From the IMG/VR virus record IMGVR_UViG_3300045988_031383, positions 1 to 57,481 of that record: a stretch of 57,481 nt of DNA; one strand, written 5' to 3'. The stretch is from a virus. Under the pieces are notes generated by a model, which did no database searches, was not told the origin of the DNA, and saw only the letters and a list, made by a program, of their open reading frames with translations. Below, piece by piece: positions 9,801 through 53,552 of the stretch. The position numbers and the translations under genes are program-made. Each line of letters starts with the position of its first letter. Position 1 is the stretch's first letter.

Positions 9801-11678
9801 GTAATGTACAAGTTAAGTACTCGTAATGGAGCATCAGGGGCCCTTAAAGATATTGGTTCCGCGCTTAAGACAGTATCGTCTTCTGCCCCTAGTGCTGCTT
9901 CTGATCTTGAGAAATTCGCATCATCATCTGAGAAGATTAAGTCGTCCTCTTCAGGAATGGCTAGCAATATTAAGAGCGTGGCAAACGCGCTTTCTAGTGT
10001 GGGACAATCAACAATGGGTGCTGCTCCTGGGATTATGGTTCTCGCCGCGGGTCTTGAGAAAGTGGCAAACACATTATCTCAATTCATATCTCGTATTACA
10101 GCAGTCGGTGCGTCGATGTCTTCTCTAGGAATGATGTTTACAACAACTGGATCTGCTGTAGCAAACCTTAGCACAGCATTCTCATCTATTTCTAACGGCA
10201 CAACGGCATTCGGTAATGCTATGAACCAAGCAAGAACTGCTCTTGCGCAATTTGGAGCTAGTGCTGCTGGATCTACTGCATCATTTGCGGTTCTTGGTAC
10301 TGCTATGACTATGGCAATGACTTTGGTCGTTAATGCTGTTAATAACGGTATGAACCAAGCTCGTGCAGCATTACAACAAGGCTTTGCTTTGATGGGAGCC
10401 GCTGCCGCAACATCTATGACTACTGTTGTTATGGCTGTTAATATGGGAATGTTGAGCGTCGTAAATGCTATCCGTACGAATATGGCTTCCGTATCTACTG
10501 TCATATCTACTGGTATGGCTCAAGCGGCAGCCGGTATGGCTAGAGGATTTGCTATGATGGGCACTAGTGCTGCTACATCTATGGCATTAGTCCGTACAAC
10601 AGTAATGACTGGTATGATGGGCGTTGTCCAATCCATCCAGAACTCAATGAACCAAGCAGCTATGGCTATGACGGCGTCTATGTCTAGAATAGCTCAAGCT
10701 ATTTCCTCATCTATGTCACAAATTAATGCTCAAATGAACATGTCTCTAAATATGATGAGAGCATCAATGCAAATGGCGTTTATGACCATGCAGATGACAA
10801 TCATGACAGCTATGATGCAAATGGCGAACCAAATCCGTAGCTCAAGCGCAATGATGCAAGCCACTATGCTCCAACTCGGAACACAAATGGTATCTGCTAT
10901 GCGTATGGCTATGGCATTGCTTAATATCACAATCTTGACTGGTATGATGCAGGCTGCAAATGGAGTTCGATCTGCTGCTGGTGTAGCTCATGCTGGTGGT
11001 GTATATGTCGGTTCGATGATTTCTCAAGGGGTTGCTGCTGGTATTAGAGCTCATCTGGGTTCTGTTATTGCCGCAACCAATGAAATCGTTGCTCAAGCCG
11101 AACGTGCTGCTCGTGCTAAAGCGAAGATCAAATCACCATCACGGTTATTCGCGGCCAATGTAGGTAAATATATTCCTCAAGGGGTTACTATGGGTATCAT
11201 TAAAGAAATGCCTAAGTCTATAGCTAAGATGTCTAAGGCATTCGGCGATGCATTTAGCGAAGTCGGTGGTAATGCTATCGACCATGCAAACTCAATGGCA
11301 ACTGCCGTTAGTGATGCTGTGAACAGCGTTGGACAATTGCTAGACGATTCGCTTGCCGATATGGACTACAAACCAACTATCACTCCTGTAGTCGATACTA
11401 CCAATCTTGACAAACTTCAAAATGGCAACATTTTACGGGCTATTGGAGTTGATGCAACTAATGTTCCACGTCCAGCATACCCTGGAGTACCTAGCTCAAT
11501 GCAATCAACCAACACAAATGTCTACGACAACTCTAATAAAGAATACTCTATTACTGTTAAAGTGGATAATGGTGGTAAACCAGTTGACGGTAAACAACTT
11601 GCTAGAGAAATTCAACAACATATTAAGGACTTTGACGATCAAGCTCGTCGAGGGAAAGGTGAAGAAGTATTATGGTGA
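3876..11678 (+). CDS. Tail tape measure protein (2600 aa)
   Basis: TP901-type TMP core: ..YADKTIYSFKDMTKNIGTFTAAGVGLDESATAIKGIGNLAAASGASTEDMSRAMYQLSQALASGRVGLMDWNSV... It is the largest ORF and lies between the chaperones and Dit. Confidence 0.95.
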   Translation: MAGYVDEKVAKVTLDNKSFTKNAKDTISALEKLKAAFSKLNGGNASKNIAKEMNAIPDAVSKSTTKSQGLLSKLKGLFTRSLDGINMSKAGKSIDQMNTDIADKTSKTSSILARLKSVFKKADSPEGLNNMSKSVDKMNSSIESASNRTGGILSKLKGLFRKADYDEGFPGATKSLDNLSKKASGGMLERALSGIKNMFRKADYDEGFPAATKSLDNLSKKASGGHLADALSGIKNMFRKADYDEGFPGATKSIDNLSTKVSKFDAGPISSSFEKASASVQKSITAMDIAMGQLLANGIQKAVGFGKKFFAGPVDGLGEYKDKLGSIQTIMTNTEWAIPDPTVRMRKVSSTLEQLNDYADKTIYSFKDMTKNIGTFTAAGVGLDESATAIKGIGNLAAASGASTEDMSRAMYQLSQALASGRVGLMDWNSVVNANMGGKLFQDALTEMGKKMGHARDETKAFRDTLKDGWLTADVLIATLKDFSVDQSMLDAAQKIKSFGQLVDTVQESIGSGWATSWEYLFGGFEEAKSLWTSVGEITQKYFDDAQGTYFDSVLEIERSLGNYRNAMLKTWKDMGGQEALFDGIKNSFEGIFKAMTNFREGFREVIGTYDQSAYRLLRITQGFRDFTASLKNNAAVHGLVISAGRLMGNIFMTVYAVLKRFHMGLKSTIGSFDGVILVFKRAADGISQFLSSIRSNFNVMSGIMNIGKAVGNVISTLGTLFKIAADLVFDFFKAFMPKGDGSGFKSFTEGLVDVTTKIRTFVEGLRGSIRQIGLFSTAAQIVSKVFENIKNAIQGLFHIKFDGGFLDGIFEGLKSFISNLTGISKPFAAIGNFLKGAFDNIINVVKKSYAVIKGIFKDLQLGDIIAAGLGLAALDKALQFKSGDGIIKKFLTGLMKPFKDFVKTGEEEMGKVSKIFNQLGETLNAFTNTVRAFTLITIAGALLILALAIARLSKIDIKDLSKGIIGMMVAFNALNKIMSNLSKLQGIPKSSVGTIIAVAIAIRILAGAMVELSKMNIDQAAAATLGLYALTKVFGSTLKMMEKIGKSKVGVFNMIAIAISLRILVSSVAKLAQYSPEQLVSSVLSVSTLLLALAGAMKIMDKVKINLRTSLGILTVVASLRLLVWSVKSIVALSPEQMISGISAVGALLLELSLAMRILNNVKIKMGAIGGLITLTLSLRVLIGGVKQLADMDPESLIKGISALGALLTELVLAARALKDIKIKFTTIATLLTFVFSITTLLKALSFIKSMDPGQFMGAIGGMSFVLAGLIAAAWALDGMNINLSSVAAVLSFAISMKMIGDELVKLAFIPWPALLASVLAMGAVMAGTVLAIRKLNQDKINTSTIVSLLAAAVLLQSVGSALSIVAKHNWQQILVAVGAIGATLGILVIAMKAVENVGLKGAGSILLLAVALNMLAIPIAVLSKLNLVGVGIGMLALAGNLAILLAAAAIAQFVAPGLALLASTMISFGVSSILASASIAIAGAGFLAFAMAVDTLAKSAPGAMAKVAKGFVEFITTIAQNAPKIVAAFVQLGHEFLKGLSILIPDFVKFGLKTVVGIINGIAEGMPQIFKAAVNLLMEFAKAFMENIDVIVQTGLQIAVKFIESLAKGLMQVKDRLIPALTDLFKVITDIVLGLLGNLIGPILEKLAEILTPVKDFILGALSEFATAIEPIFTPLMEALKVLFESLAVIIRSLADAIIAIVQSIAQVVQALAPVFITLFQTIQVVANDIVVIFQTIGQTITNVANAIVAVVQTIGQTIQVIFISIASIVNSVMQGIVGAINAFANVIRAVGEALKNVFVGIGQGIQAALQGVASVVESIGGAIKATFEGIGSAARGLGEGIQSALQGVSSIVESVGSAVKSALEGIGKAFEGAGKFAEGFGKGIEHVMNGVSKIVDSVGNAIKGIIEAIGHAFKDVGKGIELMGKGMKPIADHGLKAAAAITAVGLAVGGLGIASGTGNLNGFRADLDKLDTVMYKLSTRNGASGALKDIGSALKTVSSSAPSAASDLEKFASSSEKIKSSSSGMASNIKSVANALSSVGQSTMGAAPGIMVLAAGLEKVANTLSQFISRITAVGASMSSLGMMFTTTGSAVANLSTAFSSISNGTTAFGNAMNQARTALAQFGASAAGSTASFAVLGTAMTMAMTLVVNAVNNGMNQARAALQQGFALMGAAAATSMTTVVMAVNMGMLSVVNAIRTNMASVSTVISTGMAQAAAGMARGFAMMGTSAATSMALVRTTVMTGMMGVVQSIQNSMNQAAMAMTASMSRIAQAISSSMSQINAQMNMSLNMMRASMQMAFMTMQMTIMTAMMQMANQIRSSSAMMQATMLQLGTQMVSAMRMAMALLNITILTGMMQAANGVRSAAGVAHAGGVYVGSMISQGVAAGIRAHLGSVIAATNEIVAQAERAARAKAKIKSPSRLFAANVGKYIPQGVTMGIIKEMPKSIAKMSKAFGDAFSEVGGNAIDHANSMATAVSDAVNSVGQLLDDSLADMDYKPTITPVVDTTNLDKLQNGNILRAIGVDATNVPRPAYPGVPSSMQSTNTNVYDNSNKEYSITVKVDNGGKPVDGKQLAREIQQHIKDFDDQARRGKGEEVLW
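4059..4655 (+). repeat. About five tandem 40-aa coding repeats in the TMP N-terminus
   Basis: The unit ..LSKLKGLFRKADYDEGFPGATKSLDNLSKKASGG.. recurs. The last three copies are nearly identical at the protein level. Confidence 0.85.
6669..8400 (+). repeat. Degenerate repeats of about 58-60 aa forming a hydrophobic (predicted multi-helix membrane) block within the TMP
   Basis: Recurring ..SLR(I/L/V)L..V..LA...PEQL......LLL.L..AM.....VKI.. units run across roughly 570 aa. Confidence 0.7.
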
Positions 11679-23130: not shown

Positions 23131-23165
23131 AAAAATTCCCCGGGAGTGATTTTTAACCTAAATTC
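23131..23165 (+). promoter_or_regulatory. G/C box copy A (AAAATTCCCCGGGAGTGATTTTTAACCTAAATTC)
   Basis: Near-identical to 51271-51304 (about 30 matched positions with four 1-nt gaps, hand alignment). Weaker copy at 37750-37784. Lies at the start of the early block. Confidence 0.6.
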
Positions 23166-23188
23166 GCAGTTTCTACATGCCCTATAAT
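23165..23188 (+). promoter_or_regulatory. Early promoter P1 (CGCAG-N13-TATAAT)
   Basis: cgcagtttctacatgccctataat followed by GAAGAAAT..AAAGGAGG and ATG 23217. Confidence 0.75.
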
Positions 23189-23216
23189 GAAGAAATATTA
23201 AAGGAGGGTCATTACT

Positions 23217-23674: not shown

Positions 23675-23698
23675 CGCAGAAATTACATACACTATAAT
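23675..23698 (+). promoter_or_regulatory. Early promoter P2 (CGCAG-N13-TATAAT) driving the tRNA-like locus
   Basis: cgcagaaattacatacactataat followed by GAAGAA. Confidence 0.75.
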
Positions 23699-23702
23699 GA
23701 AG

Positions 23703-23778
23703 AAGGTGCTTAGCTCGGTTGGGGTAGAGCAGCCAGAGAGATCTGGAAGGTCGCGGATTCGAATTCACGCACACCTTC
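23703..23778 (+). ncRNA. tRNA-like RNA with a non-canonical cloverleaf (pseudo-tRNA or tRNA mimic)
   Basis: Canonical D-arm GCTC GGTTGGGGTA GAGC, variable AGGTC, and T-arm GCGGA TTCGAAT TC(A)CGC. Acceptor AAGGTGC/ACACCTT has 6 bp plus a mismatch. The anticodon arm is CCAGA GAGA TCTGG (a 6-nt loop or a GNRA-capped hairpin), there is one extra linker nt, and no CCA. Confidence 0.5.
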
Positions 23779-23787
23779 ATCATATAG

Positions 23788-23863
23788 AAAATAGGTACCG
23801 CGAGAGGAAGCTGTAAATGCCGGTTCGATTCCGGATGGTTAAATTTATAGCCTATTTTTTTTT
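23788..23863 (+). ncRNA. Second structured element with a tRNA T-arm remnant, ending in a T10 run (probable end of the RNA locus)
   Basis: CCGG TTCGATT CCGG hairpin (23820-23834). It is enclosed by AAAATAGG (23788-95) pairing with CCTATTTT (23851-58), then TTTTT. Confidence 0.4.
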
Positions 23864-24334: not shown

Positions 24335-24358
24335 CGCAGAAATTACATACTCTATAAT
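24335..24358 (+). promoter_or_regulatory. Early promoter P3 (CGCAG-N13-TATAAT)
   Basis: cgcagaaattacatactctataat followed by GAAGAAATAATTTAAAGGAGG. Confidence 0.8.
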
Positions 24359-24387
24359 GAAGAAATAATTTAAAGGAGGATTTTAAC

Positions 24388-24641: not shown

Positions 24642-24923
24642 ATGGCAATTCAAAAATATGAAAACTTAAGTGACATGGACATGATTTACTTGTTAGTTGA
24701 GAGTACCGATATTTACTATAGGACAATTGGCGGTGATCAATCACAATGGGCCGGTATACGATGGACATTTAGACCAAACGATTGGTCAAGATGGCGGATT
24801 CGCGAGATCTATAGAAAGATCAACGATATTCGCAAGAAGTATAAATTGTTATCCGTTCCTACAGGAGCTTCTTTAGAGGACTGCTGGGAAGGTATGCCTC
24901 CGCAGAAATTACAAGTCATATAA
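24642..24923 (+). CDS. Hypothetical early protein
   Basis: AAAGGAGAACAGAGA upstream. 93 aa. Its last 8 codons are promoter P4. Confidence 0.7.
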   Translation: MAIQKYENLSDMDMIYLLVESTDIYYRTIGGDQSQWAGIRWTFRPNDWSRWRIREIYRKINDIRKKYKLLSVPTGASLEDCWEGMPPQKLQVI

Positions 24924-24924
24924 T
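24901..24924 (+). promoter_or_regulatory. Early promoter P4 (CGCAG-N13-TATAAT), embedded in the 3' end of the upstream ORF
   Basis: cgcagaaattacaagtcatataat followed by GAAGAAATAATTTAAAGGAGG, a leader identical to that of P3. Confidence 0.8.
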
Positions 24925-24953
24925 GAAGAAATAATTTAAAGGAGGTAACTATT

Positions 24954-27751: not shown

Positions 27752-28283
27752 ATTAGATGAGTTTGGTATTGTTCGGTATATTATAGACACTGGCGATAAA
27801 GTCGTGTCTATATTGCTTAACGATATTGCGGAAGACACAGGCGATAATGACGACACTCTTCTTTTAGTTAAGAGCGAACACATTCCATTTTATGATGAAC
27901 TATGGGACACCCCTCAATCCTCTGAGTATATACTAGTTAAAGGTATTAAATTCTATGTTAGTACATGGCACGCTTTGGGATATGGTATATATTTCATTGT
28001 TGATTTGTATACAACAGAACACGGAAACATTCTATATTTAGACTCGGATAGAAAAGATCGTCTATATGATATGGATTGGTTCATTGCAAATAAGTGCTTG
28101 GTTGGATGTGATGGTGGATTCCTCAAACGAAATTATAGAATGTATTCAAGATGTTGTATTAATTTCTATGGAGCCAAAAAGGTATTTCCAATCAATCATT
28201 CTATAGTCCACGATTGGTATGGATTTGAGAAGCATCTAGCTAACTCTTACTTAAATAGCTCGCAGAAAAAACAAGGCTCATAG
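27744..28283 (+). CDS. Hypothetical protein
   Basis: CAGGAGGAG upstream of ATG 27744. The longer track version (27513) overlaps the previous gene out of frame. Confidence 0.7.
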   Translation: MSELDEFGIVRYIIDTGDKVVSILLNDIAEDTGDNDDTLLLVKSEHIPFYDELWDTPQSSEYILVKGIKFYVSTWHALGYGIYFIVDLYTTEHGNILYLDSDRKDRLYDMDWFIANKCLVGCDGGFLKRNYRMYSRCCINFYGAKKVFPINHSIVHDWYGFEKHLANSYLNSSQKKQGS

Positions 28284-30362: not shown

Positions 30363-31823
30363 ATGAATAAAAAAGCAATCGTATTTACAGGAACTATCGC
30401 ACTTGCCCTTTTGACAGCACCAAGCGTATTAGCTAACGAAGCCGATACTGTTGTCACCAAACAAGATACTAATATCACAGTGCAAAATCCTTCAGTTGAA
30501 GTAACAACATCTGATGATACTATTTACGCTGATGTAGATGTCAAAGTTAATGATATCCAAATCCCAGATGATATTTCAATCAATAAAGGAGACAGTATCA
30601 CTGTTGGATTGCCGCAAGAGCTTAAATTGGTAAATAACTACACATTCCCAGTTAACAATAACGAGGGAACAGAAGTTGGTACAGCCACTGCGAACAAAGA
30701 TAATAACGAAGTTACAACTGTGTTCAATGACTACTTTGAATCGCACCCTCTAAATAAAACATTCTCTCTTGATATCAAAACTCAATGGAATGTCGAAAAG
30801 GTTGCTGAGAATCAACAAGTTGCCCTTGATTTCAACGGTCGTAAGGTTGAAACTACTACTGGTAAAACTGGTGTTATCGGTAAAGATGAAACTCTTATGA
30901 AATGGGGAGGCGAGGACGCCGAACACCCAGGCGAAATCGTATGGGCAATGCGTGTTAACTACGCCAAGAAAGACCTAGTCAATGTCAAAGTTGCTGATAC
31001 TTGGGACGAAAACCAAGAATATGTTAAGGATTCGTTCAAAATGGTGTCTGTTGAATCAAATAACCCTTGGAAAGAAAAAGAATCTGAAGCAACTAAGATT
31101 GCTCCTGTATTCCATACTAATGGTTTCACTTGGTCTGCAGATAAACTCTCGGATCAGTTGTATATTAGCTATCGTACAAAGGTTATCAAACAAGCTGAGC
31201 GTTATTTGAATAGCGTGGTTCTTAGTGCTGACAACTTCAATTCACAATATCGTGATGTACCTTATCAATTTGTAACCGGCAGCGGTAAGGCAGATGGAGA
31301 AAACAAACCTAAGGTAGAGGATAAGAAGCCAGAGGAAAAACCAAAAGAAGATCCTAAACCTAAGGAAGAAACTCCTAAAGAAGATCCTAAAGAAGATCCT
31401 AAAGAAGATCCTAAGAAGCCAGAAGATAAGCCTAAAGAAGATCCTAAAGAAGATCCTAAGAAGCCAGAAGATAAGCCTAAAGAGGAACCTAAACCTAAAG
31501 AAGAAACTCCTAAAGAGGAACCTAAAGAGGATCCTAAGAAGCCAGAAGATAAGCCTAAAGAGGATCCTAAGAAGCCAGAAGATAAGCCTAAGGAAACTCC
31601 TAAACCTCAAACACCACCTGCACCTAAGCAAGTTGTAATTCGTAAATACGAAGAAAAGAAACCTGTTGTGCGCAATATCCCGGCCAAAGTAATTGAAGCA
31701 ACCAAACAAGTTGAAACTCATACTTTGCCAAATACTGGATCTAGCCTAGAGCTTGCCCTCATTACTACTGGTGTGTTCTTGGCATCTGCTGCGGTAGCTA
31801 TCAAACGAAAGGAAACTAAATAA
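30363..31823 (+). CDS. LPXTG cell-wall-anchored surface protein with a Cna/collagen-binding-like adhesin domain
   Basis: Signal peptide MNKKAIVFTGTIALALLTAPSVLANE. ..GDSITVGLPQELKL..TATANKDNNEVTTVFNDYFE.. resembles MSCRAMM A-domains. Also has a Pro/Lys/Glu/Asp-rich wall-spanning repeat, LPNTG (31725-31739), a hydrophobic stretch and a KRKETK tail. Confidence 0.9.
   Translation: MNKKAIVFTGTIALALLTAPSVLANEADTVVTKQDTNITVQNPSVEVTTSDDTIYADVDVKVNDIQIPDDISINKGDSITVGLPQELKLVNNYTFPVNNNEGTEVGTATANKDNNEVTTVFNDYFESHPLNKTFSLDIKTQWNVEKVAENQQVALDFNGRKVETTTGKTGVIGKDETLMKWGGEDAEHPGEIVWAMRVNYAKKDLVNVKVADTWDENQEYVKDSFKMVSVESNNPWKEKESEATKIAPVFHTNGFTWSADKLSDQLYISYRTKVIKQAERYLNSVVLSADNFNSQYRDVPYQFVTGSGKADGENKPKVEDKKPEEKPKEDPKPKEETPKEDPKEDPKEDPKKPEDKPKEDPKEDPKKPEDKPKEEPKPKEETPKEEPKEDPKKPEDKPKEDPKKPEDKPKETPKPQTPPAPKQVVIRKYEEKKPVVRNIPAKVIEATKQVETHTLPNTGSSLELALITTGVFLASAAVAIKRKETK
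31306..31628 (+). repeat. Tandem Pro-rich coding repeats (KPEDKPKEDPKEDPK-type)
   Basis: gatcctaagaagccagaagataagcctaaaga recurs four times, with shorter gaagatcctaaa units between. Confidence 0.9.
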
Positions 31824-32158
31824 TGCAAAGTTGGTTAAAGACTCCGGATATGGCAAAAGATAGTGAGACATTCGGTATCATTGCTTTATTTAAATCTATG
31901 GCATATGATTACAAATACGCAAATCTAGATCCAATTGAGAAGTCTGTGGTGTCATATTTGATGATAAACTATCATCAAATTGAACTTGGGAATAATGTTC
32001 AGAACGATCTAAAAGAAATTTCCCAAATCTTCATAGAAGAAAACGGACCTTCTATTGTATCTGACGTATGTACACTGATGGCTAATCCAGATTTGATTGC
32101 GGAACATATCGAATACCTCAAAAGTTTTAATAATCCGCAGGAATTACACGCACTATAA
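31823..32158 (+). CDS. Hypothetical protein
   Basis: TAATG overlap with the adhesin stop. 111 aa. The last codons are promoter P5. Confidence 0.65.
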   Translation: MQSWLKTPDMAKDSETFGIIALFKSMAYDYKYANLDPIEKSVVSYLMINYHQIELGNNVQNDLKEISQIFIEENGPSIVSDVCTLMANPDLIAEHIEYLKSFNNPQELHAL

Positions 32159-32159
32159 T
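32136..32159 (+). promoter_or_regulatory. Early promoter P5 (CGCAG-N13-TATAAT), embedded in the ORF 3' end
   Basis: cgcaggaattacacgcactataat followed by GAAACGAAATAAAAAAGGAGG. Confidence 0.7.
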
Positions 32160-32188
32160 GAAACGAAATAAAAAAGGAGGACTATAAA

Positions 32189-45512: not shown

Positions 45513-45536
45513 CGCAGAAATTACATGGCACATAAT
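45513..45536 (+). promoter_or_regulatory. Promoter P6 (CGCAG-N13-CATAAT)
   Basis: cgcagaaattacatggcacataat, preceded by the inverted repeat GGGTC attttg GACCC. Confidence 0.6.
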
Positions 45537-45537
45537 A

Positions 45538-45586
45538 GAGAGGGAAGTGGAAAAAACTCGAATTTTTCACTCCTCTCATTGTTTTT
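45538..45586 (+). terminator. Promoter-proximal hairpin plus T-tract (leader terminator / attenuator, or short RNA)
   Basis: GAGAGG..AGTG.AAAAA (45538-55) pairs with TTTTTCACTCCTCTC (45563-77) with two bulges, followed by ATTGTTTTT. Confidence 0.55.
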
Positions 45587-46157: not shown

Positions 46158-47332
46158 TGACTATTGAGTTATACGACTATCAGCGTAGGGCAGTTGATAG
46201 TATGCATAACGGATCTGTTTTGTGCGGGAAGGTCGGTTCTGGTAAATCCTTGACCGGCCTATTTTATTATATGGAGAACCATATTGATAAGCCGCTGTAT
46301 ATTATTACAGTTGCCAAGAAACGAAACGATCGTGAATGGCATAGAGATTTTGAAGCCTTAGGAATAAATGGTGTTGTCGATTCATGGAATAACATCAACA
46401 AGTATTCCGACGTAAAAGATGCGTTCTTTATTTTTGACGAACAAAGAGCGATTGGATACGGAACATGGGGAATGGCATTTATATCAATTGCCAGAAAGAA
46501 TAAATGGATAATGCTCACCGCGACGCCTGGTGATGTTTGGATGGATTGGATGTGTATTTTCATAGCCAATAATTTCTATCGAAACAAAACCGATTTTGTT
46601 GAACAACATGTCGAGTACAATCCATATTCAAAATTCCCTCAAATCAAGCGATATCATAAAACAGATAAGCTTGAAAGATACAGACGATATCTTGCAGTGC
46701 CCATGGAAGATTTTAGAACTACAAAAGTTCATCGTCAATTTATTACTGCTCAGTATGATAAAGAATTATATGAGCAAGTAAAGAAAACCAGGTTCAATCC
46801 ATTTACGGAAGAACCAATACAAAATGCTTCCGAGTTTACTCAAGTATTACGTCGTATAGTAAATACTAGCGATCGTAGGCGAGCAAATGTGAAGCAACAA
46901 ATTATGACTCGTGATCGAATCATAGTTTTCTACAACTATACCTATGAGCTTGATATTCTCAAAGAGATTTGTCAAGAATTAAATAGGGCATTTTATCAAT
47001 GGAACGGCAGTAAACATGAGCCAATACCTGATACCGATAGTTGGGTATATCTGGTTCAGTACACGGCCGGGGCTGAGGGATGGAATTGTATAACTACTGA
47101 CACGATTTTATTCTATTCGTTAAATTATTCCTATCGAATTATGGAACAATCCGAAGGACGAATTAATCGAGTGAATACCTCCTTTAAAGATCTTTTCTAC
47201 ATTTATATGAAATCCCCAGCCTCAATTGATGATGCTATCGCTAGATCTATATCTAGCAAAAAGAAATTTAACGAAAGGAATTGGGTGACCCACGAATGTC
47301 CAAATTGGAGCGAGATTTTCAAAAAGGATTGA
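46157..47332 (+). CDS. SF2 (DEAD/SNF2-like) DNA helicase
   Basis: Motif I GKVGSGKS, motif II FIFDEQ, motif III LTATPG, motif VI QSEGRINR. Confidence 0.85.
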   Translation: MTIELYDYQRRAVDSMHNGSVLCGKVGSGKSLTGLFYYMENHIDKPLYIITVAKKRNDREWHRDFEALGINGVVDSWNNINKYSDVKDAFFIFDEQRAIGYGTWGMAFISIARKNKWIMLTATPGDVWMDWMCIFIANNFYRNKTDFVEQHVEYNPYSKFPQIKRYHKTDKLERYRRYLAVPMEDFRTTKVHRQFITAQYDKELYEQVKKTRFNPFTEEPIQNASEFTQVLRRIVNTSDRRRANVKQQIMTRDRIIVFYNYTYELDILKEICQELNRAFYQWNGSKHEPIPDTDSWVYLVQYTAGAEGWNCITTDTILFYSLNYSYRIMEQSEGRINRVNTSFKDLFYIYMKSPASIDDAIARSISSKKKFNERNWVTHECPNWSEIFKKD

Positions 47333-47601
47333 TTAAAGACATCAAGCAGTTATTTCCTAACGCGATTGTCAAGAAGAATGATCCAAACTATATTCAAGGA
47401 ATTCCTGACCTGTCTGTGGATGTCGGGCCATATTCCTATCACTTAGAGTGCAAGAAAAGCGCCAAGAGTCCGTTTAGACCAAATCAAGAGTATTATCTTG
47501 AGCAGTACAATAAAAACGGAGGATGGGCGAGAGTGATTTATCCGGAGAATAAGGAGGATGTTCTGCATGAAATGGAACAGACACATCGAATACGAGGGTA
47601 A
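47296..47601 (+). CDS. VRR-NUC domain nuclease
   Basis: ..IQGIPDLSV...YHLECKKS....RPNQ....YNKNGGWARVIY.. matches the D..(E)xK..Q pattern of VRR-NUC. ATG at 47296. Confidence 0.7.
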   Translation: MSKLERDFQKGLIKDIKQLFPNAIVKKNDPNYIQGIPDLSVDVGPYSYHLECKKSAKSPFRPNQEYYLEQYNKNGGWARVIYPENKEDVLHEMEQTHRIRG

Positions 47602-48142
47602 GCACTCATTTTTAAGTGCTAGTCAGTGTCACTGGTTAAATTACAGTCCAGAGAAATTGGTTGAGCGTTTTGAAAACGAAAAAGCTAAACAACGAGGAAC
47701 AGAATTACACGAATTTGCGAGTCATGCGATTCAACATAGAATTAAATTACTCCCAGGTAATACTCATCCAGCTGTGGCTAATTTCGTAAATGATGCAATC
47801 GGATATCGCATGGATAGTGAAGTACTATTATTTTACAGTCCATATGCATTCGGTACAGCAGATGCTATCCGATATGATCCGCCAAAGAAAGATAATCCAC
47901 GAGGATTTCTTAGAATTCATGATTTGAAGACTGGAGTATCCAAACCAAAGATGGAACAGCTATTAGTTTATGCTGCTTATTTCTGTCTTGAGTATGGCGT
48001 TAAACCTGAGAAAACTGATTTTGAACTTCGTATTTATCAAGGCGATGATATTCGTACATATATTCCAGAGGCGGAAGATGTGTATGATGTATATCACACA
48101 ATTAAAGAATTCAGTGGAATACTTGAAAGCAAACCGAGGTAA
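47567..48142 (+). CDS. PD-(D/E)XK nuclease (DUF2800 / RecB-Cas4-like exonuclease)
   Basis: ..HSFLSASQCHWLNYSPEKL.., ..GTADAI.. and ..IHDLKTG.. (D...DxK). GGAGG lies 9 nt upstream of ATG 47567. Confidence 0.7.
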   Translation: MKWNRHIEYEGKHSFLSASQCHWLNYSPEKLVERFENEKAKQRGTELHEFASHAIQHRIKLLPGNTHPAVANFVNDAIGYRMDSEVLLFYSPYAFGTADAIRYDPPKKDNPRGFLRIHDLKTGVSKPKMEQLLVYAAYFCLEYGVKPEKTDFELRIYQGDDIRTYIPEAEDVYDVYHTIKEFSGILESKPR

Positions 48143-48145
48143 ATA

Positions 48146-50791
48146 ATGAATCTTGAAGATGCATATAATGATTTTCTAGAACATAGAGGAACTCCTCACC
48201 AAGGATCTATTCCACATAGTGGACGATTTGCTTGGGGTTCGGGAGAGAATTCATATCAACGTGCGACTTCCTGGTCAGATGTCGTTGCTAAATACCGTAA
48301 GAGCGGATTAACTGATACTCAAATTTCTATGAAGCTTGGTATCACAACGACCGAATTCCGTTCTCGTAATAATATTGCCAAGCACGAAATTCGTAAATAC
48401 AACATTAGTCGTATTCAAGAATTATCTGCAAAAGGCATGACTTCTATTGAGATTTCTCGGGCAACTGGTATTCCAGAATCTACAGTTCGTATGAATTTGG
48501 ATGCTAAAGTTCGTCATAATGTAAATCGAATGGAAGAAATTAAGACTGATATTAAGGGATTGATTGAAAAGAATCCATATCTTGACGTTGGTCTTGGTGC
48601 AGCTCAACAATTAGGAGTAAATGAGAATACTCTTAAACGTGCGGTACAACAATTAGAATCCGAAGGATATCACAAACATACAGTATATGTTAAGAATGCT
48701 ACAAATGATGATCACTGGGTCGAAATGAAAGTTCTTACAAAAGAATCAGATCCAAATGTTGTTCGTGAACATAAGCATGAAATCAAACCACCATTTATTT
48801 CTGAGACTGATGATGGAAAAAGTGTATTAGGATTACGTCCAATTGAACATGTTGATTGGAAACGTGTAGGAATTCGATATGCTGAACAAGGTGGTACGGA
48901 TAAAGATGGTGTAATGGAATTACGTCCAGGAGTAAAAGATCTTGATCTTGGTAAATCCCGTTATGCTCAAGTTCGTATTGGTGTAAATGGTACGCATTAT
49001 CTTAAAGGTATGGCTGTTTATGGAGATCCAAAAGATTTTCCAAAAGGCGTCGATATTATTTTCAATACCAATAAACATAAAGGTACTGCAAAAGAAGATG
49101 TCTTGAAGAAATTAAAGGACGATCCAGATAATCCATTCGGTGCAACAATTAAAGTTGGTGGACAAAAAGGTGCTATCAACAAAGTAAATGAAGAAGGTGA
49201 CTGGGCTAGCTGGTCTAAAACATTATCTTCTCAATTTGTTTCCAAACAACCACCAGCTTTGGTTAAAGGTCGTATTGATGAAACATATAAAAAGCTACAG
49301 AAAGAGTTTGATGAGATTTCTAATCTAACAAATCCTGTAGTTAAACGTGTAATGATGCAGGATTTTGCTGATGGTCTTACAACCAAACGGCATAATCTTA
49401 AATTGACTGGGTTCGATAGAATGAAAGGTCAAGTATTATTACCTTTATCTGGAATTAAAGCTAACGAAATCTATGCTCCTAATTTTAAAAACGGTGAGAA
49501 AGTAGTTCTTGTTCGATATCCTCATGGTGGTATTTTCGAATTACCAGAATTAACTGTTAATAATAAATTAGGAAACACTGCAGCTAAATTCATGAAGGGC
49601 GCAAAAGATGCAGTCGGAATTGATTCGTCTGTTGCATCTAAATTATCTGGTGCTGATTTCGATGGTGACTCAGTTATGGTTATTCCTAATAATAAAAACG
49701 GAATTAAAACAAGTCGTTCATTAAAAGAATTAAAGAACTTTGATACGAACGATTATTATTCTCCAGATAAAAACATTTTAAATCGTAATTCAAAAGGTGA
49801 CTGGACAATTAAACAGAAAACGATGGGCGAAGTTTCAAATCTTATTACCGATATGACTTTGAAAGGAGCATCAAATAGTGAAATTGCTAGAGCCGTAAAG
49901 CATTCGATGGTCGTCATCGATGCTGAAAAACATAATTTAGATTATAAAAGATCTGAAAGAGAAAACGGTATTCCAGAATTACGAAAAAGATATCAGATGC
50001 ATTACGATGTTATTACTGGTACTACAAAAATGGGAGCCTCAACTCTTATTTCTAGATCAAAAACAGATCATAGAGAAACAGAGACCTGGGAAAAACCACG
50101 TACTGCAGAAGAACTAGCCGCAAATCCTAGATTGAAACCTACTGTTAAGAAAACTAAAACAGTTTCTACAGATAGTGTAATTGAACTAGTTGATGATGCT
50201 AAGAAACTAGGTTCTGGTACTCCTATTGAAAATATGTATGGAGATTATGTAAATGCTCTTGGTAAAATGAGGGATAAAGCTAATAAAATTGTAGAGACAT
50301 CTCCTAATCTTAAGCTCAGCAAAGAGGCAAGAGTTAAGTATAAGGATCAAGTTGAGTCTCTACAACACAAGCTTAATACTGCCCTTATGAACTCTCCTAA
50401 AGAACGTCAAGCTCAGCTCATAGCTAACAAAGCTATTGCTGATAAACGTACTCCTGAGATGGGTAAAGAACAACTTAAGAAGCTCAAACAACAGGCTATT
50501 GCAGCAGCCCGTCTAAAGACTGGTGCTGATGGAGCTGGTACTCGTATCAACATAGACAATGATGAGTGGCAAGCTATCCAGTCTGGTGCTGTAAGTACTA
50601 AGATGCTTACTGATGTACTACGCTTTGCTGATAGTGATCGTGTTAAGCAACTGGCTACACCTCGTAAAGAGAAGGCTATTAGTCTTGGTACAGCTAGCAG
50701 AGCTAGAGCTATGCTTAAGAGTGGTCACACCTATGCTGAAGTAGCGTCTGCTCTAGGTATCAGTGTGTCTACTGTGCAAGACCTATCATAG
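48146..50791 (+). CDS. Candidate single-subunit two-barrel (double-psi beta-barrel, YonO-like) RNA polymerase with N- and C-terminal HTH domains
   Basis: Beta-like motif KVGGQKGAINKVN (aa 336-348). Beta-prime-like motifs VRYPHGGIFELP (aa 456-467) and GADFDGDSVMVIP (aa 502-514, the DxDGD metal loop). HTH-like segments at aa ~55-75, ~98-116, ~148-170 and ~860-880. Confidence 0.6.
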   Translation: MNLEDAYNDFLEHRGTPHQGSIPHSGRFAWGSGENSYQRATSWSDVVAKYRKSGLTDTQISMKLGITTTEFRSRNNIAKHEIRKYNISRIQELSAKGMTSIEISRATGIPESTVRMNLDAKVRHNVNRMEEIKTDIKGLIEKNPYLDVGLGAAQQLGVNENTLKRAVQQLESEGYHKHTVYVKNATNDDHWVEMKVLTKESDPNVVREHKHEIKPPFISETDDGKSVLGLRPIEHVDWKRVGIRYAEQGGTDKDGVMELRPGVKDLDLGKSRYAQVRIGVNGTHYLKGMAVYGDPKDFPKGVDIIFNTNKHKGTAKEDVLKKLKDDPDNPFGATIKVGGQKGAINKVNEEGDWASWSKTLSSQFVSKQPPALVKGRIDETYKKLQKEFDEISNLTNPVVKRVMMQDFADGLTTKRHNLKLTGFDRMKGQVLLPLSGIKANEIYAPNFKNGEKVVLVRYPHGGIFELPELTVNNKLGNTAAKFMKGAKDAVGIDSSVASKLSGADFDGDSVMVIPNNKNGIKTSRSLKELKNFDTNDYYSPDKNILNRNSKGDWTIKQKTMGEVSNLITDMTLKGASNSEIARAVKHSMVVIDAEKHNLDYKRSERENGIPELRKRYQMHYDVITGTTKMGASTLISRSKTDHRETETWEKPRTAEELAANPRLKPTVKKTKTVSTDSVIELVDDAKKLGSGTPIENMYGDYVNALGKMRDKANKIVETSPNLKLSKEARVKYKDQVESLQHKLNTALMNSPKERQAQLIANKAIADKRTPEMGKEQLKKLKQQAIAAARLKTGADGAGTRINIDNDEWQAIQSGAVSTKMLTDVLRFADSDRVKQLATPRKEKAISLGTASRARAMLKSGHTYAEVASALGISVSTVQDLS

Positions 50792-50808: not shown

Positions 50809-51183
50809 ATGACTACACAACAAGACACCGTTGACAACTCATCACTCTATGCTGATACAGTAACGAATGAAGAGTATAACAAAGCAGTAAGTATCAATGC
50901 TATGCTTACTACGTATGACAACCCATACAATCCATACACAGACTATGATGCTTGGTGGCAATGGGACAAAGAGAATGGTTACAACACGCCAGAACTCTTA
51001 GCGTTTGTAATGGGTGACACATCTAAAGCTTTAGATGAAGTAGAAGTAGCACAGATCCAAGCTACTGCTATGAACTACATCGTAGATGAAGGACCAATCG
51101 AAGACGTTTGGACATTCATCAAAGAAGATACAGCAACGCCCATTCGTTTACCGACATCAACGTCGACCGTGACAACGTTTTAA
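50809..51183 (+). CDS. Hypothetical acidic protein
   Basis: AAAGGAGGAGCTAGTCC upstream. 124 aa. Confidence 0.7.
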   Translation: MTTQQDTVDNSSLYADTVTNEEYNKAVSINAMLTTYDNPYNPYTDYDAWWQWDKENGYNTPELLAFVMGDTSKALDEVEVAQIQATAMNYIVDEGPIEDVWTFIKEDTATPIRLPTSTSTVTTF

Positions 51184-51208
51184 ATGAAATAAAACGAGTC
51201 ACAAAATG

Positions 51209-51270
51209 CGACACCCCATAGGGGGAGGGTCGTGGGATCTCCCCACCCCTCTGCATCGCCGCACCTCTCC
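51209..51270. other. G/C-rich island in an AT-rich genome: candidate cos/packaging site
   Basis: gacaccccatagggggagggtcgtgggatctccccacccctctgcatcgccgcacctctcc. It contains the bulged hairpin GAGGG-tc-GTGGG atctc CCCACCCCTC, lies in a 165-bp non-coding gap upstream of the holin/TerS/HNH/TerL block, and an HNH gene is nearby. Confidence 0.4.
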
Positions 51271-51321
51271 AAAATTTCCCCGGAGTGGTTTTTGACCCTA
51301 ATTCAGGGGTCAAAGTATAGG
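51271..51321 (+). promoter_or_regulatory. G/C box copy B plus inverted repeat TTTGACCC-N8-GGGGTCAAA and TTGACC-N18-TATAGG: candidate late promoter/operator
   Basis: aaaatttccccggagtggtttttgaccctaattc matches 23131-23165. The inverted repeat spans 51291-51314. It lies 28 nt upstream of the first late ORF. Confidence 0.5.
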
Positions 51322-51348
51322 GTAACTAAATCAAAGGAGACTAGAACT

Positions 51349-51780
51349 ATGCACACAGAAGTACATGACCACTTCGTTGGTCTACTAAAGTGGCTACTAT
51401 CTCCTGAAGTTCTTTCTCAGATCGGACTTTATGTCGGTATAGGAGCTTCAATTGTTGGTTTTTCAACTCGTGTGTTCAAGAAACTCTGGAACAAACTCGA
51501 AGAAAAGCAAAACCAAGAGATCGAAGGTATCAAAAATTCCATTGAGGCATTAGCTATTAGCATGGAAGAGATGAGAAAGACCCAAGAGCGAGACTTCTTG
51601 AGGTTACAAATCATCACCGGCATCCATTCCGGACGATTGTCGAACAACGAAGTTCTGACATTGTATGACCAGTACGTCCAAAACGGCGGAAACTCGTATG
51701 TTAGTCGGGTAGTGAATGATTATGTGGAAGAAGAAAAATCAAGGGAAGAGGTAAAACGTAATGTTAGAAAACGTACTTAA
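51349..51780 (+). CDS. Membrane-anchored coiled-coil protein (lysis-associated?)
   Basis: AAAGGAGACTAGAACT upstream of ATG 51349. TM segment IGLYVGIGASIVGFS. The track's longer version (51232) runs through the non-coding GC island. Confidence 0.7.
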   Translation: MHTEVHDHFVGLLKWLLSPEVLSQIGLYVGIGASIVGFSTRVFKKLWNKLEEKQNQEIEGIKNSIEALAISMEEMRKTQERDFLRLQIITGIHSGRLSNNEVLTLYDQYVQNGGNSYVSRVVNDYVEEEKSREEVKRNVRKRT

Positions 51781-52105
51781 TTTAATTACGTTAGTTGTCA
51801 TGGTAGCACCATTGGTTGTTGAAGGGGTTAAATACCTCGGAGCTATCACGCACAACAAAAAAGTTATTACGCTGGCCGAACGAGCAATGATCATCGTATC
51901 ATCACTCGACCGCTTGGACATTGCTAACGACAGTAAGAAACAAGCAGCTCTAGACAAGCTACTTCATTTCGCTAATGAAACACGTACTCAATTAACTACC
52001 GCTCAAGCGGAAGACTATATCGAGAACGCGGTTTTAACGTTACGCAGACTTCAGGAAAGTGCTAGCAATTCGGAGGTATCTACAAATGCCCCGGAGAAGA
52101 AATGA
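51761..52105 (+). CDS. Putative holin, LL-H-like (one N-terminal TM helix and a charged C-terminus)
   Basis: MLENVLNLITLVVMVAPLVVEGV.. followed by ..KKQAALDKLLHFANE..LTTAQAEDYIENAV.., the layout of Lactobacillus phage LL-H-type holins. Confidence 0.5.
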   Translation: MLENVLNLITLVVMVAPLVVEGVKYLGAITHNKKVITLAERAMIIVSSLDRLDIANDSKKQAALDKLLHFANETRTQLTTAQAEDYIENAVLTLRRLQESASNSEVSTNAPEKK

Positions 52106-52409
52106 AACGGACGATATTCGTCAAGCATTAACACCAGAAGGACGGATGCTAAAACTTACAAAGAAAGCATTCGACTTGGCCGAGCGCCAGTTAGACGATG
52201 GTACCATAGCTCCAAGTACTTTGAACGCTCTATTGCGTTATGGTACAGTAGAAAACGAACTCCAACTAGAAGGTCTTAGAGCCAAGAACAAACTTAATGA
52301 CTCTAAAGTCGCTTTGATTGACAGCGAAGTCAAAGGTAAAGGTGACAGTCAAGAAGTTATTAACGCTATTCGTGGTTATATGCCGTCGGAGGAGTTCAAT
52401 GTCGAATAG
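52086..52409 (+). CDS. Putative small terminase subunit
   Basis: GGAGG lies 9 nt upstream of ATG 52086. 107 aa with a basic N-terminus and helical content. It lies upstream of HNH and TerL. Positional call only. Confidence 0.4.
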   Translation: MPRRRNETDDIRQALTPEGRMLKLTKKAFDLAERQLDDGTIAPSTLNALLRYGTVENELQLEGLRAKNKLNDSKVALIDSEVKGKGDSQEVINAIRGYMPSEEFNVE

Positions 52410-52812
52410 GGAGCTTCTATTAGATTTATCTTACGATGAATTAATTAAGTACTCGTCATATGGCGATCGACTAAACTATCTTTCTCTATACAAGAAAGGA
52501 TACATCTCCCCAAGAACAATCTCAAACAAGTTCTATCGTTCAAGACTATGGCTAGATCTTCGTGATCAAGTTATAGCTCGAGATCTAGGATACGATTTGG
52601 GAATTCCTGGAATGGATATTGAAGGCCCAGTTCTTGTACATCACATTTTTCCATTGGAAGAAGATGATATACTAAATTGGGACGAGGACGTTTTGTTAAA
52701 TCCGAATCGCCTCATAACAACTTCTATTAAGACACACAACATTATCCATTATGGAGATAGATCGCAAACGGTATATGTCGAAAGAAAGCCTGGTGATACA
52801 AAATTATGGTGA
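52399..52812 (+). CDS. HNH endonuclease (terminase-associated)
   Basis: ..VLVHHIFPLEEDD..NPNRLITTSIKTHNIIHYG.. (H-N-H). ATG 52399 has GGAGGAG upstream. Confidence 0.8.
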   Translation: MSNRELLLDLSYDELIKYSSYGDRLNYLSLYKKGYISPRTISNKFYRSRLWLDLRDQVIARDLGYDLGIPGMDIEGPVLVHHIFPLEEDDILNWDEDVLLNPNRLITTSIKTHNIIHYGDRSQTVYVERKPGDTKLW

Positions 52813-52819
52813 GGTACTA

Positions 52820-53164
52820 ATGTCAAAAATTTTAGACGATGTTAAGAGTACTTTAGATTTTGCTTCGGAAGAAGATTCCGGATTCGACGCTCGACTTTTG
52901 CTAGAGATCGACGGAATTGTTGGTACATTGTCACAACTTACTAAAGTTCACCCAGACTGTGACATCACAAAAGATACAGAATGGGAACAATTACTAAAAG
53001 AATCCGACAAGCATCTATTAAGACTCGTCAAACAGTACATATTCCTTTCCATACGAGTGGTATTCGACCCGCCTGCTGGTAGTGTGTTAACAACACTAAC
53101 AACAAGCATCAATAATACCGCCCATAGAATTATTATTCAGAAGGGAGAGTACAATGAACAATAA
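52820..53164 (+). CDS. Hypothetical protein (possible gp6-like head-tail connector / DNA-packaging protein)
   Basis: GGTGAGGTACTA upstream of ATG 52820. The N-terminus ..LDDVKSTLDFASEEDSGFDARLLLEID.. resembles QLRG/gp6-type connectors. Confidence 0.45.
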   Translation: MSKILDDVKSTLDFASEEDSGFDARLLLEIDGIVGTLSQLTKVHPDCDITKDTEWEQLLKESDKHLLRLVKQYIFLSIRVVFDPPAGSVLTTLTTSINNTAHRIIIQKGEYNEQ

Positions 53165-53552
53165 TATTGTTTCAGTAGACAATTCTTCTGATGTAATTGA
53201 GCACTTTGGTGTTCGAGGTATGAAGTGGGGCGTTCGACGTCAAAGACGTAGAGAAGCCAAACGTTTGAAAAAAGCCTCGGCAGCGAGAAACAAAGAATGG
53301 CGTAAAAAATATCTTGATCGATCAAACATGACTGACGAAGATATTAGAAAAGCCACAAATCGTCTTAGATTAGAAAACGATTTCGCGGAACAAGTTAAAC
53401 GTTCTGCCGTTGTTTCTATGAAGCCACCTGGAAGAGCTAAACAACTTGGTAACACAGCGATTAATAAAGTTATCGATGTTTCAATCCAAACAGCAGCTCA
53501 AAAAGGAACTAATTACGCTTTTGACAAAATGACTTCAAACAACAGAAGATAG
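53154..53552 (+). CDS. Small basic protein with the HFGVRGMKWGVRR motif (paralogue 3 of 3), immediately upstream of TerL
   Basis: AAGGGAGAGTACA upstream. The N-terminus ..VDNSSDVIEHFGVRGMKWGVRRQRRRE matches the ORFs at 21511 and 22661. Confidence 0.7.
   Translation: MNNNIVSVDNSSDVIEHFGVRGMKWGVRRQRRREAKRLKKASAARNKEWRKKYLDRSNMTDEDIRKATNRLRLENDFAEQVKRSAVVSMKPPGRAKQLGNTAINKVIDVSIQTAAQKGTNYAFDKMTSNNRR

Follow-up and report, generated by a model that had tools for sequence, protein, structure and literature searches.

Introduction

How does a single-subunit RNA polymerase (RNAP) carried by a phage find its promoters? Enzymes of this kind that are built around two barrels are regarded as minimal relatives of the universal transcription enzyme, or as its relics, and their way of finding promoters is an open question. 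We take up this question with one gene of the IMG/VR virus record IMGVR_UViG_3300045988_031383, all 57,481 nucleotides of which form the window of this study. A first-pass annotation, made from the sequence alone, had read the product of one open reading frame (ORF), 881 amino acids (aa) long, as a self-contained phage RNAP with built-in helix-turn-helix (HTH) domains. The ORF is indeed there, and every peptide quoted from it is found at the residues named:

48146 to 50791, + strand: RNAP gene, encoding an 881-aa HTH/two-barrel RNA polymerase/HTH protein (ORF and translation; phrog_4291; family of phage 1706 ORF75).

This protein belongs to the two-barrel fold class, keeps an intact catalytic signature, and carries HTH domains at both termini; its gene lies in a conserved gene order and co-occurs with a promoter-like element. 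Our preferred reading, which we hold with somewhat more than even confidence, is that it is a single-subunit two-barrel RNAP whose fused HTH domains read a promoter of its phage lineage, with early and middle transcription largely independent of host σ factors.

A large, known family of predicted polymerases

The polymerase identity of the protein had already been predicted in the literature, and the window gene is an ordinary member of a known, uncharacterized family. Residues 8-879 match positions 9-903 of the 909-position profile phrog_4291, named "RNA-dependent RNA polymerase" (E = 4.2e-302), and RefSeq gives several family members the same label. NCBIfam has no curated model for the protein. 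Ruprich-Robert and Thuriaux (2010, PMC2919709) counted the phage-1706 family among five YonO-like families and argued that these are bona fide nucleotide polymerases. Koert et al. (2021, bioRxiv 10.1101/842583) found the family in the actinobacteriophage supercluster BI, AM, AU, CC, DJ, EL and in the 1706/FP_oengus group, reported an HHpred probability of 95.7% to PF05183 (with alignment), terminal HTH domains and a DxDGD loop, and regarded the gene as a possible signature of this phage group; in this Actinobacteria/Firmicutes phage supercluster the protein goes as "HTH domain-containing putative RNA polymerase".

The family is large. A tblastn search found relatives in 250 phage records, with at least 80% query coverage in 249 of them, from phages of Arthrobacter, Gordonia, Streptomyces, Lactococcus (the 1706 group), Rhodococcus, Curtobacterium, Microbacterium, Faecalibacterium, and Bifidobacterium; many of these 250 isolate genomes come from easily grown SEA-PHAGES hosts and from Lactococcus lactis. 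An exhaustive profile search brought the number of 50%-identity clusters with a match to 3642, of which 1165 reach E ≤ 1e-30. Among isolate-level relatives, Caudovirus D_HF5_2C from human saliva is nearest (83% aa identity), near-identical copies of the gene are present in human-associated IMG/VR contigs, and identity to the isolates' homologues is 38-47%.

A two-barrel fold with an intact catalytic signature

An AlphaFold2 model of the full-length protein, built from a 70-sequence alignment, reached a mean predicted local distance difference test score (pLDDT) of 81.3 and a predicted template modeling score (pTM) of 0.73. Searched against PDB with Foldseek, it gave 10 significant matches, all to QDE-1 or RDR2 (E from 1e-8 to 4e-4, probability 1.00), the eleventh match already having E > 1. 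A core-only model from 11 sequences (pLDDT 61.8), which serves as a secondary check only, again placed QDE-1 first (E = 5e-8, TMq 0.44), followed by the Thermus-phage RNAPs 8F72 and 8F5M (E = 3-4e-5) and then by RDR2, Pol IV NRPD1, the β′ subunit of AR9, and many β′/Rpb1 chains. The comparison with two-barrel polymerases that the first-pass annotation had called for is therefore significant for QDE-1, RDR2, the Thermus-phage enzymes (P32 gp64/P74 gp62), and Pol IV NRPD1; crAss gp66 is not among the matches. At the sequence level, phmmer and hmmsearch against the PDB sequences, with the protein and with the full and core alignments, returned HTH matches only, plus the Mg loop of AR9 β′ at a nonsignificant E of 0.6, so that solved structures are out of reach by sequence only. 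The polymerase core comprises the following features:

48866 to 49186, + strand: barrel 1, a β-subunit-like, β-rich domain (aa 241-347) with D254-G255, R277, and K287-G288.
49151 to 49189, + strand: KVGGQKGAINKVN (aa 336-348), the "β motif" of the first-pass annotation; a look-alike that is not conserved.
49424 to 49687, + strand: barrel 2, β′-like (aa 427-514), with R457-x-P459-H460 and the Mg loop D504-F-D506-G-D508 (nucleotides 49655-49669).
49805 to 49996, + strand: pair of conserved helices that follows barrel 2 (aa 554-617; helices 554-572 and 577-596), with G561, N565, D569, D592, K595, and H596 invariant in 150 of 150 homologues.

Conservation was assessed in the 70-sequence alignment and in 150 diverse homologues with 39-66% identity to the window protein (median, ∼43%). 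In barrel 2, R457, P459, D504, D506, G507, and D508 are conserved in all 70 and all 150 sequences and H460 in 149 of the 150, which goes far beyond chance and bears out the β′-like active site claimed for this region. Two-barrel polymerases share eight invariant residues, in QDE-1 D709, R738, K743, R962, P964, D1007, D1009, and D1011, with equivalents in Rpb1 (R446/P448) and Rpb2 (D837, K979, K987) (PMC2919709); the eight corresponding positions, those of barrel 1 by the putative equivalence set out below, are conserved in 148 to 150 of the 150 homologues. R457 stands 47 residues before D504, compared to an equivalent spacing of 45 in QDE-1. An hhalign comparison of the core profile with a six-member YonO-family profile aligned barrel 2 over 80 columns (E = 5.9e-5, probability 65%), pairing R457/P459/H460 with YonO R492/P494/H495 and D504/D506/D508 with D535/D537/D539.

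Barrel 1 is modeled with strands at 241-244, 256-259, 273-280, 284-292, 304-307, 335-341, and 344-347. Its D254 is conserved in 148 of the 150 homologues and its G255, R277, and K287-G288 in all of them; R277 and K287 lie on neighboring strands of the AlphaFold model (273-280 and 284-292). The order D254-G255/R277/K287-G288 is the same as that of YonO (D249-G250/R266/K271-G272) and QDE-1 (D709/R738/K743), and hhalign of barrel 1 only against the YonO family, although not significant (E = 0.044), pairs VR277/YLK287G with VR266/WVK271G. From pattern, invariance, and secondary structure we infer that D254, R277, and K287 are the signature of the β-like barrel. The first-pass annotation had placed it elsewhere, at K341 and K346 of KVGGQKGAINKVN, taken as the two invariant lysines of the β-subunit motif GRHGNKGVISKIN. 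That segment does lie inside the first β-rich domain, but most homologues carry an insertion there, and neither lysine is conserved: position 341 is Lys in 34 of the 150 (Glu in 49) and position 346 is Lys in 33 (Ile in 81). The likeness to GRHGNKGVISKIN is that of a look-alike, and by the criterion that the annotation itself had set this part of the claim falls; the aspartates of DFDGD are conserved.

The helical pair that follows barrel 2, covered by a Pfam match to the RNA-dependent RNA polymerase (RdRP) family that is weighed below, is probably a bridge-helix-like region. About 40 further positions of the core, which accounts for over half of the protein's length, are invariant over the 150 homologues. 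Such invariance of catalytic and core positions at a median identity of ∼43% argues for strong selection on the active site.

Helix-turn-helix domains at both termini

Outside the core, the protein carries three N-terminal segments and one C-terminal segment of the HTH type, as had been read from the translation; they score above Pfam cutoffs and form helical HTH units in the AlphaFold model.

48176 to 48253, + strand: conserved N-terminal peptide (aa 11-36) with the core S25-G26-R27-(Y/F)-(P/A)-W-G-S-G-E-N, predicted to be disordered.
48308 to 48739, + strand: N-terminal DNA-binding region with HTH1 (aa 55-71), HTH2 (aa 98-115), and winged HTH3 (aa 148-198), from Pfam and the model.
50684 to 50785, + strand: C-terminal three-helix HTH (aa 847-880) like σ region 4 or LuxR, with helices at 847-858, 863-870, and 874-880.

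In the N-terminal region, HTH_23 scores 44.3 bits (cutoff, 24.6), HTH_24 33.4 bits (cutoff, 21.9) at 153-175, and GerE 27.7 bits (cutoff, 23.5) at 92-116, and HTH_IclR is also above its gathering score. The C-terminal unit matches Sigma70_r4_2 with 33.7 bits (cutoff, 25.7) at 860-878 and also HTH_23. The HTH helices of the model lie at 57-64 and from 68 onward, at 100-118, at 152-172 followed by a β wing at 176-198, and at 847-880. Pfam HTH domains occur at both termini not only of the window protein but also of its homologues in phages 1706, Hankly, and FP_oengus. The protein is nevertheless not a member of the σ70 family: only the region 4-type HTH is present, and the NCBIfam σ70-ECF model scores 17.6 bits against a cutoff of 42.9.

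In the N-terminal peptide, whose wider pattern is (H)YG...SGR(Y/F)(P/A)WGSGEN, residues S25, G26, and R27 are invariant and positions 28-33 are conserved in at least 90% of the 70 sequences, whereas pLDDT is below 50 for residues 1-39. Because it is conserved without predicted structure, we speculate that it may serve in docking or targeting, for instance toward a partner protein or in packaging.

A promoter-like element that travels with the phage lineage

The "CGCAG promoter" noted in the first pass is real. In the window the element reads CGCAG-N3-TTACAT-N4-TATAAT-GAAGAAAT and occurs in six + strand copies; the core pattern CGCAG..TTACAT has 7 matches, compared to 0.83 expected.

23136 to 23196, + strand: copy 1 (CGCAGTTTCTACATGCCCTATAATGAAGAAAT, from 23165) together with a G/C box (23136-23158), at the start of the early block.
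23675 to 23706, + strand: copy 2 (CGCAGAAATTACATACACTATAAT...), followed by a tRNA-like element.
24335 to 24366, + strand: copy 3.
24901 to 24932, + strand: copy 4.
32136 to 32167, + strand: copy 5, ahead of the ORF at 32189.
45513 to 45544, + strand: copy 6, a CATAAT variant, heading the string from the single-strand annealing protein (SSAP) gene through helicase, VRR-Nuc, and exonuclease to RNAP.

Four of these copies are tandem cassettes at the very beginning of the early block. The geometry is that of a perfect −10-like hexamer that lacks a −35 at a distance of 17 bp and has TTACAY 4 nucleotides (nt) upstream, with CGCR another 4 nt upstream of that. Across the lineage the element can be written yCGCR-N4-TTACAY-N4-TATAAT-GA, a tripartite pattern of ∼24 nt. 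It is found in six genomes that encode the RNAP: in addition to the window, these are 1706 (9 strict copies), Hankly of Arthrobacter (4-5), Conley of Gordonia (8), Scap1 of Streptomyces (1-2), and D_HF5_2C (4-5). Every copy lies on the coding strand, against a shuffle expectation of 0.00-0.06 per genome, and those of phage 1706 likewise cluster just after the tail genes, with one more in the replication block. The element is absent from both strands of three controls, Lactococcus phage sk1, Streptomyces phage phiC31, and 50 kb of SPβ; sk1, which has the same host species as 1706, carries annotated σA early promoters of the form TTGACA-17-TATAAT.

A blind scan of 2.9 million IMG/VR viral contigs for the tripartite pattern yielded at least 120 motif-bearing stretches. 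Among the matches listed, 44 stretches have 2-6 copies on the same strand, and 59 hold homologues of genes of this phage, including the PolA-primase in 18 and the RNAP in 5. Co-occurrence and blind scan together mark the element as a feature that this phage lineage carries across two host phyla. It goes unmentioned both by Koert et al. and in the Microbacterium phage paper, and the candidate promoter class CGCR-TTACAY-TATAAT, conserved with this RNAP, is new here. Counting the motif in the 10 kb on either side of the gene at 80 IMG/VR loci (3 versus 0, with 0.8 expected) is uninformative because the promoters lie 18-30 kb upstream. Scans for σ70 promoters and terminators around the RNAP gene were at chance (42 versus 40.3 and 12 versus 8.3, respectively).

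Directly after copy 2 lies a tRNA-like element (23702-23779), with a second T-arm-like sequence, GCCGGTTCGATTCCGGA, at ∼23820-23836; D_HF5_2C has a counterpart (∼27878-27959), also directly after its promoter copy 2. Standard ARAGORN and Rfam searches gave no tRNA or RNA family behind copy 2. Relaxed ARAGORN settings report a "tRNA-???" with a nonstandard anticodon loop (2-nt or 4-nt "anticodon"), and with introns allowed the D_HF5_2C copy becomes tRNA-Arg(gcg) with a 5-nt intron, so that the element may be an unusual or degenerate tRNA.

Genome context

The window holds the complete genome of a siphophage in circularly permuted form; its G+C content is 39%, and every gene lies on the + strand. 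Its late block runs from terminase (53566) through portal, protease/capsid fusion (18-1130), major tail protein, tape measure, and tail and fiber proteins to endolysin (21927). An early block of small ORFs begins at ∼23.1 kb, and a replication block follows with the PolA-type primase-polymerase (41659; 1273 aa), SSAP, helicase, VRR-Nuc, and exonuclease, then the RNAP gene, and then a small conserved ORF. ORF annotation thus agrees with the earlier placing of the RNAP gene at the end of the replication block with the late block next to it.

47281 to 47601, + strand: VRR-Nuc-type endonuclease (phrog_93), a conserved upstream partner.
47558 to 48142, + strand: PD-(D/E)XK/Cas4-like exonuclease (phrog_3953), a conserved upstream partner.
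50809 to 51183, + strand: small conserved ORF (phrog_4303), with a homologous small ORF 3′ of the RNAP gene in relatives.
51184 to 51348, no strand assigned: noncoding, G+C-rich gap (59%, compared to 39% for the genome) 3′ of the phrog_4303 ORF, with a G/C box and an inverted repeat inside.

The order VRR-Nuc, exonuclease, RNAP is kept in 1706, Hankly, FP_oengus, ReqiPoco6, Scap1, and Conley. In the window the exonuclease stop lies 3 nt before the RNAP start, which makes cotranscription likely; the 450-bp gap of phage 1706 directly upstream of orf75, with five copies of AAAACTTCGGGA (51646-52033), has no counterpart there. In linear relatives, the RNAP gene is the last large gene ahead of the right cos end and the phrog_4303 ORF the final gene before it, and many IMG/VR contigs end 300-500 bp past the RNAP gene.

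The gap at 51184-51348 is probably the cos site, or physical genome end, and the start of the late block: the cos end of relatives sits here, and the left-end gene order of 1706 matches the window from 51349. The 23-nt G/C box inside it has exactly two copies in the window, compared to 0.01 expected, one at the start of the early block (TTCCCCGGGAGTGATTTTTAACC, 23136-23158) and one at that of the late block (TTTCCCCGGAGTGGTTTTTGACC, 51275-51297), the latter overlapping a perfect 8-bp inverted repeat (TTTGACCC/GGGTCAAA, 51291-51314). The box may either be a regulator site or belong to cos. Neither D_HF5_2C nor the fetched loci of the other relatives yielded the box, which therefore provides no conserved late promoter candidate.

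As the first-pass annotation had stated, no σ, ArpU, or RinA family was detected among the ∼60 window ORFs scanned. Nor did the ORF scans of the window detect a TerS family, at 52751-53552 or elsewhere in the late block; the ORF directly before TerL (53154-53552) matches families of unknown function only. An HNH endonuclease (52318-52812) lies near TerL, as is usual for HNH-dependent cos packaging. The GTG-start ORF at 51232-51780 more likely has the ATG at 51349 as its start codon, preceded by the ribosome-binding site AAAGGAG. The capsid gene (18-1130), which runs off the window start, is an apparent protease-major capsid fusion (matches to phrog_3270 and to major head proteins), as in the annotation of relatives. 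The tape measure protein (3876-11678) is unusually long at 2600 aa, with tape-measure/tail PHROG matches only. Finally, the early region contains dense in-frame short tandem repeats at 31320-31600, with AAAGAAGATCCTAA and CCTAAGAAGCCAGAAGATAAGCC units in 4-6 copies each, which encode a Lys/Glu/Asp/Pro-rich low-complexity segment of the ORF at 30363-31823; its 486-aa product has no PHROG match.

A proposed mechanism and its alternatives

Fold search, profile comparison, catalytic invariance, and Pfam HTH domains agree on a self-contained two-barrel RNAP homologue of the YonO/QDE-1/crAss class, and we propose that the enzyme would act as a σ-independent, DNA-dependent RNAP. Its HTH domains would dock on CGCR and TTACAY beside the AT-rich melting box, and the enzyme would transcribe the early and middle block as well as the operon that holds its own gene. 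Since the elements head the earliest-looking genes and the RNAP operon, the first enzyme molecules would have to arrive by one of two routes: either the enzyme is delivered with the virion, or it is made first from the right genome end, which probably enters the cell ahead of the rest. In cos siphophages, DNA entry usually begins with the end packaged last.

Of the first-pass interpretation as a whole, the two-barrel RNAP homologue with HTH domains stands; the assignment of K341/K346 is replaced by D254/R277/K287, and the family proves to have been described before. Its "phage-private transcription system" gains support from the joint occurrence of the protein and the element, a candidate promoter, in phages of two host phyla. 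The idea that the RNAP substitutes for a small late activator is not favored by the promoter layout, as the lineage promoters head the early and middle block and no copy was found in the structural block.

Several points weigh against our proposal. The literature search turned up no experiments with a protein of the phage-1706 ORF75 family. The Pfam RdRP match (PF05183, residues 493-604) scores 20.9 bits, below its gathering score of 23.8, with matches at the same profile positions in three other members (22.1, 16.8, and 16.3 bits), and the residue equivalence in barrel 1 is drawn from pattern and invariance, the profile alignment of that barrel being nonsignificant. Host RNAP could use the element because it contains a perfect σA-type −10 box, either alone, which is plausible in Actinobacteria, or with a phage activator, and the element accompanies the whole phage lineage just as much as it does the protein. 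As to delivery with the virion, the only hint is the label "structural protein" that the authors' GenBank record EU081845 gives to orf75 of 1706, the same label in ReqiPoco6 being copied by similarity; an abundant DNA-binding protein can contaminate virion preparations; and the RNAP gene lies in the replication module, whereas known virion RNAP genes usually lie in the structural module. In EU081845 the label is also given to small ORFs scattered outside the morphogenesis module, which points to detection by experiment. The strongest form of our proposal, in which a virion-packaged RNAP reads the ∼24-nt promoter through its HTH domains, this arrangement is conserved in two phyla, and early transcription is fully independent of the host, is accordingly one that we regard as possible but doubtful.

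The best surviving alternative, itself unlikely, is a YonO-like late polymerase. Host σA RNAP would read the elements for the early and middle genes, including that for the RNAP, and the RNAP would then transcribe the late block (from ∼51.3 kb on), starting from a different site such as the G/C box and inverted repeat at 51275-51314. This would accord with the position of the RNAP gene, which ends the early/middle block directly 5′ of the late block in the circularized genome, with the G/C box at the start of both blocks, and with the missing lineage promoter in the structural block. Promoters consisting of a −10 box only are common in Actinobacteria, which would suit host recognition of the element. 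The precedent is YonO itself, which transcribes the SPβ late genes as one operon (PMC5467207). However, the G/C box is not conserved in the fetched relatives; σA phage promoters of Lactococcus, as in sk1, have a −35 or a TG-extended −10, and the 1706 elements have neither; and if the −10 alone matters, there is no explanation for why CGCR and TTACAY are conserved, with fixed spacing, in both phyla. The "structural protein" label of 1706 ORF75 also fits a late polymerase less well.

We consider it very improbable that the protein is mainly a DNA-binding regulator, with HTH domains that bind CGCR/TTACAY beside a host −10 and either activate host RNAP or take it over, much as the T4 MotA box replaces the −35, the core having a secondary or lost function. 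Its four HTH units, one of them like σ region 4, the location of the boxes where a −35 substitute would be expected, and the many database entries that call the protein merely an HTH DNA-binding protein are in keeping with such a role, but a lost or secondary function is hard to square with the catalytic signature and ∼40 invariant positions of a core that fills more than half of the chain. Slightly less credible still is a role in replication or packaging, through synthesis of primers or R-loops or through HTH binding of the cos region that tethers the protein to the DNA end. The RNAP gene invariably closes the replication/recombination module as its last large gene, beside the genome end, no TerS family was detected, and the N-terminal HTH of 1706 ORF75 exceeds the Pfam Terminase_5 cutoff (26.3 versus 20.3); yet this match is a generic 25-residue HTH only, the phage already encodes its own primase-polymerase, and nothing ties two-barrel polymerases to packaging. 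Least likely of all is the RdRP of the PHROGs and RefSeq label, copying or amplifying phage or host RNAs for regulation or counterdefense: the closest solved folds, QDE-1 and RDR2, are RdRPs, as is the subthreshold Pfam family, but the label derives from that family's name and not from experiment, DNA is the template of YonO and of the Thermus-phage enzymes in the same clade, double-stranded DNA-binding HTH domains and a co-occurring promoter-like element favor a DNA template, and QDE-1 also has DNA-dependent activity (PMC9508822).

If the strongest form, with a virion-packaged enzyme, is true, this would be the first two-barrel RNAP shown to recognize promoters via built-in σ-like HTH domains. 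A portable transcription module would also explain how the lineage spans Actinobacteria and Firmicutes and why its G+C content stays so much lower than that of its actinobacterial hosts. With candidate domains for promoter recognition in the polymerase chain itself and a well-defined candidate promoter, the question of how such an RNAP finds its promoters becomes directly testable by simple biochemistry. If the enzyme reads the element without host factors, it would offer a compact, orthogonal transcription module for both phyla and a mechanistic reason for the host range of the lineage.

Comparison with known polymerases

With the phage 1706 ORF75 family, the window protein shares full-length homology, the HTH-core-HTH architecture, the catalytic signature, the synteny from VRR-Nuc through exonuclease, RNAP, and small ORF to the genome end, and the promoter-like element. 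Nothing essential differs: it has 881 aa, compared to 1029 in 1706, because it lacks insertions such as that around residue 337, and it comes from a human oral phage lineage, whereas the 1706-family isolates are from dairy or soil.

The crAss-like phi14:2 gp66, the N4 virion RNAP, and T7 RNAP offer a functional analogy only, as σ-independent enzymes with long, phage-specific promoters. The N4 and T7 enzymes have the unrelated right-hand polymerase fold, and gp66, as noted, was not matched by the model. The gp66 and N4 enzymes are delivered with the virion; for the window family, virion presence is hinted at by one database label, that of 1706 ORF75. Closer are the single-subunit two-barrel RNAPs of Thermus phages, P23-45 gp64 and P74-26 gp62; structures of the gp64 type were recovered by the fold search. 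In P23-45, a virion (gp96) and a nonvirion (gp64) two-barrel RNAP are proven, each with its own promoter motif, and the gene of the nonvirion enzyme lies in the first-entering genome segment, recalling the window gene near its probable first-entering right end. These enzymes differ in having no detectable sequence similarity to the window protein and no reported HTH, and gp96 is fused to the tape measure. QDE-1 of Neurospora and plant RDR2 (PF05183) are the best structural matches of the model and have the same eight signature residues, those of barrel 1 by putative equivalence, with the RdRP profile falling on the Mg loop and the helices, but they are eukaryotic, serve double-stranded RNA production, have no HTH, and show 10-15% identity and a below-threshold Pfam score; TM-scores of only 0.3-0.44 mean that the periphery differs.

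YonO is a proven DNA-dependent RNAP for the SPβ late genes, with promoter recognition stated as an open question (PMC5467207). Like the window protein, it is a phage-encoded single chain of ∼840-880 aa with a β-like followed by a β′-like barrel and the pattern DG...R...KG...RxP...DxDxD. There is no BLAST-level similarity between the two, however: tblastn with YonO found 40 phage records, none of which holds a window-type protein, and hhalign of the family against the single YonO sequence gave nothing, the YonO-family profile being needed to align barrel 2 only. YonO has no HTH or any other Pfam domain, compared to HTH domains at both termini of the window protein, and its gene adjoins an HU-like gene in temperate phages of ∼130 kb, the SPβ segment having no promoter element. 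An HU/IHF-like gene lies 0.3-1.5 kb 3′ of the polymerase gene in six of six YonO-family phages (SPβ, D-1873 of Clostridium, Perkons, PMBT24, BUCT082, and TR-TP1). This neighbor might be a possible supplier of the DNA-binding function that is fused as HTH domains in the 1706-type family. By sequence profile the window protein thus belongs to a sister family of SPβ YonO, not to YonO sensu stricto, and by its predicted structure this family comes closest to QDE-1.

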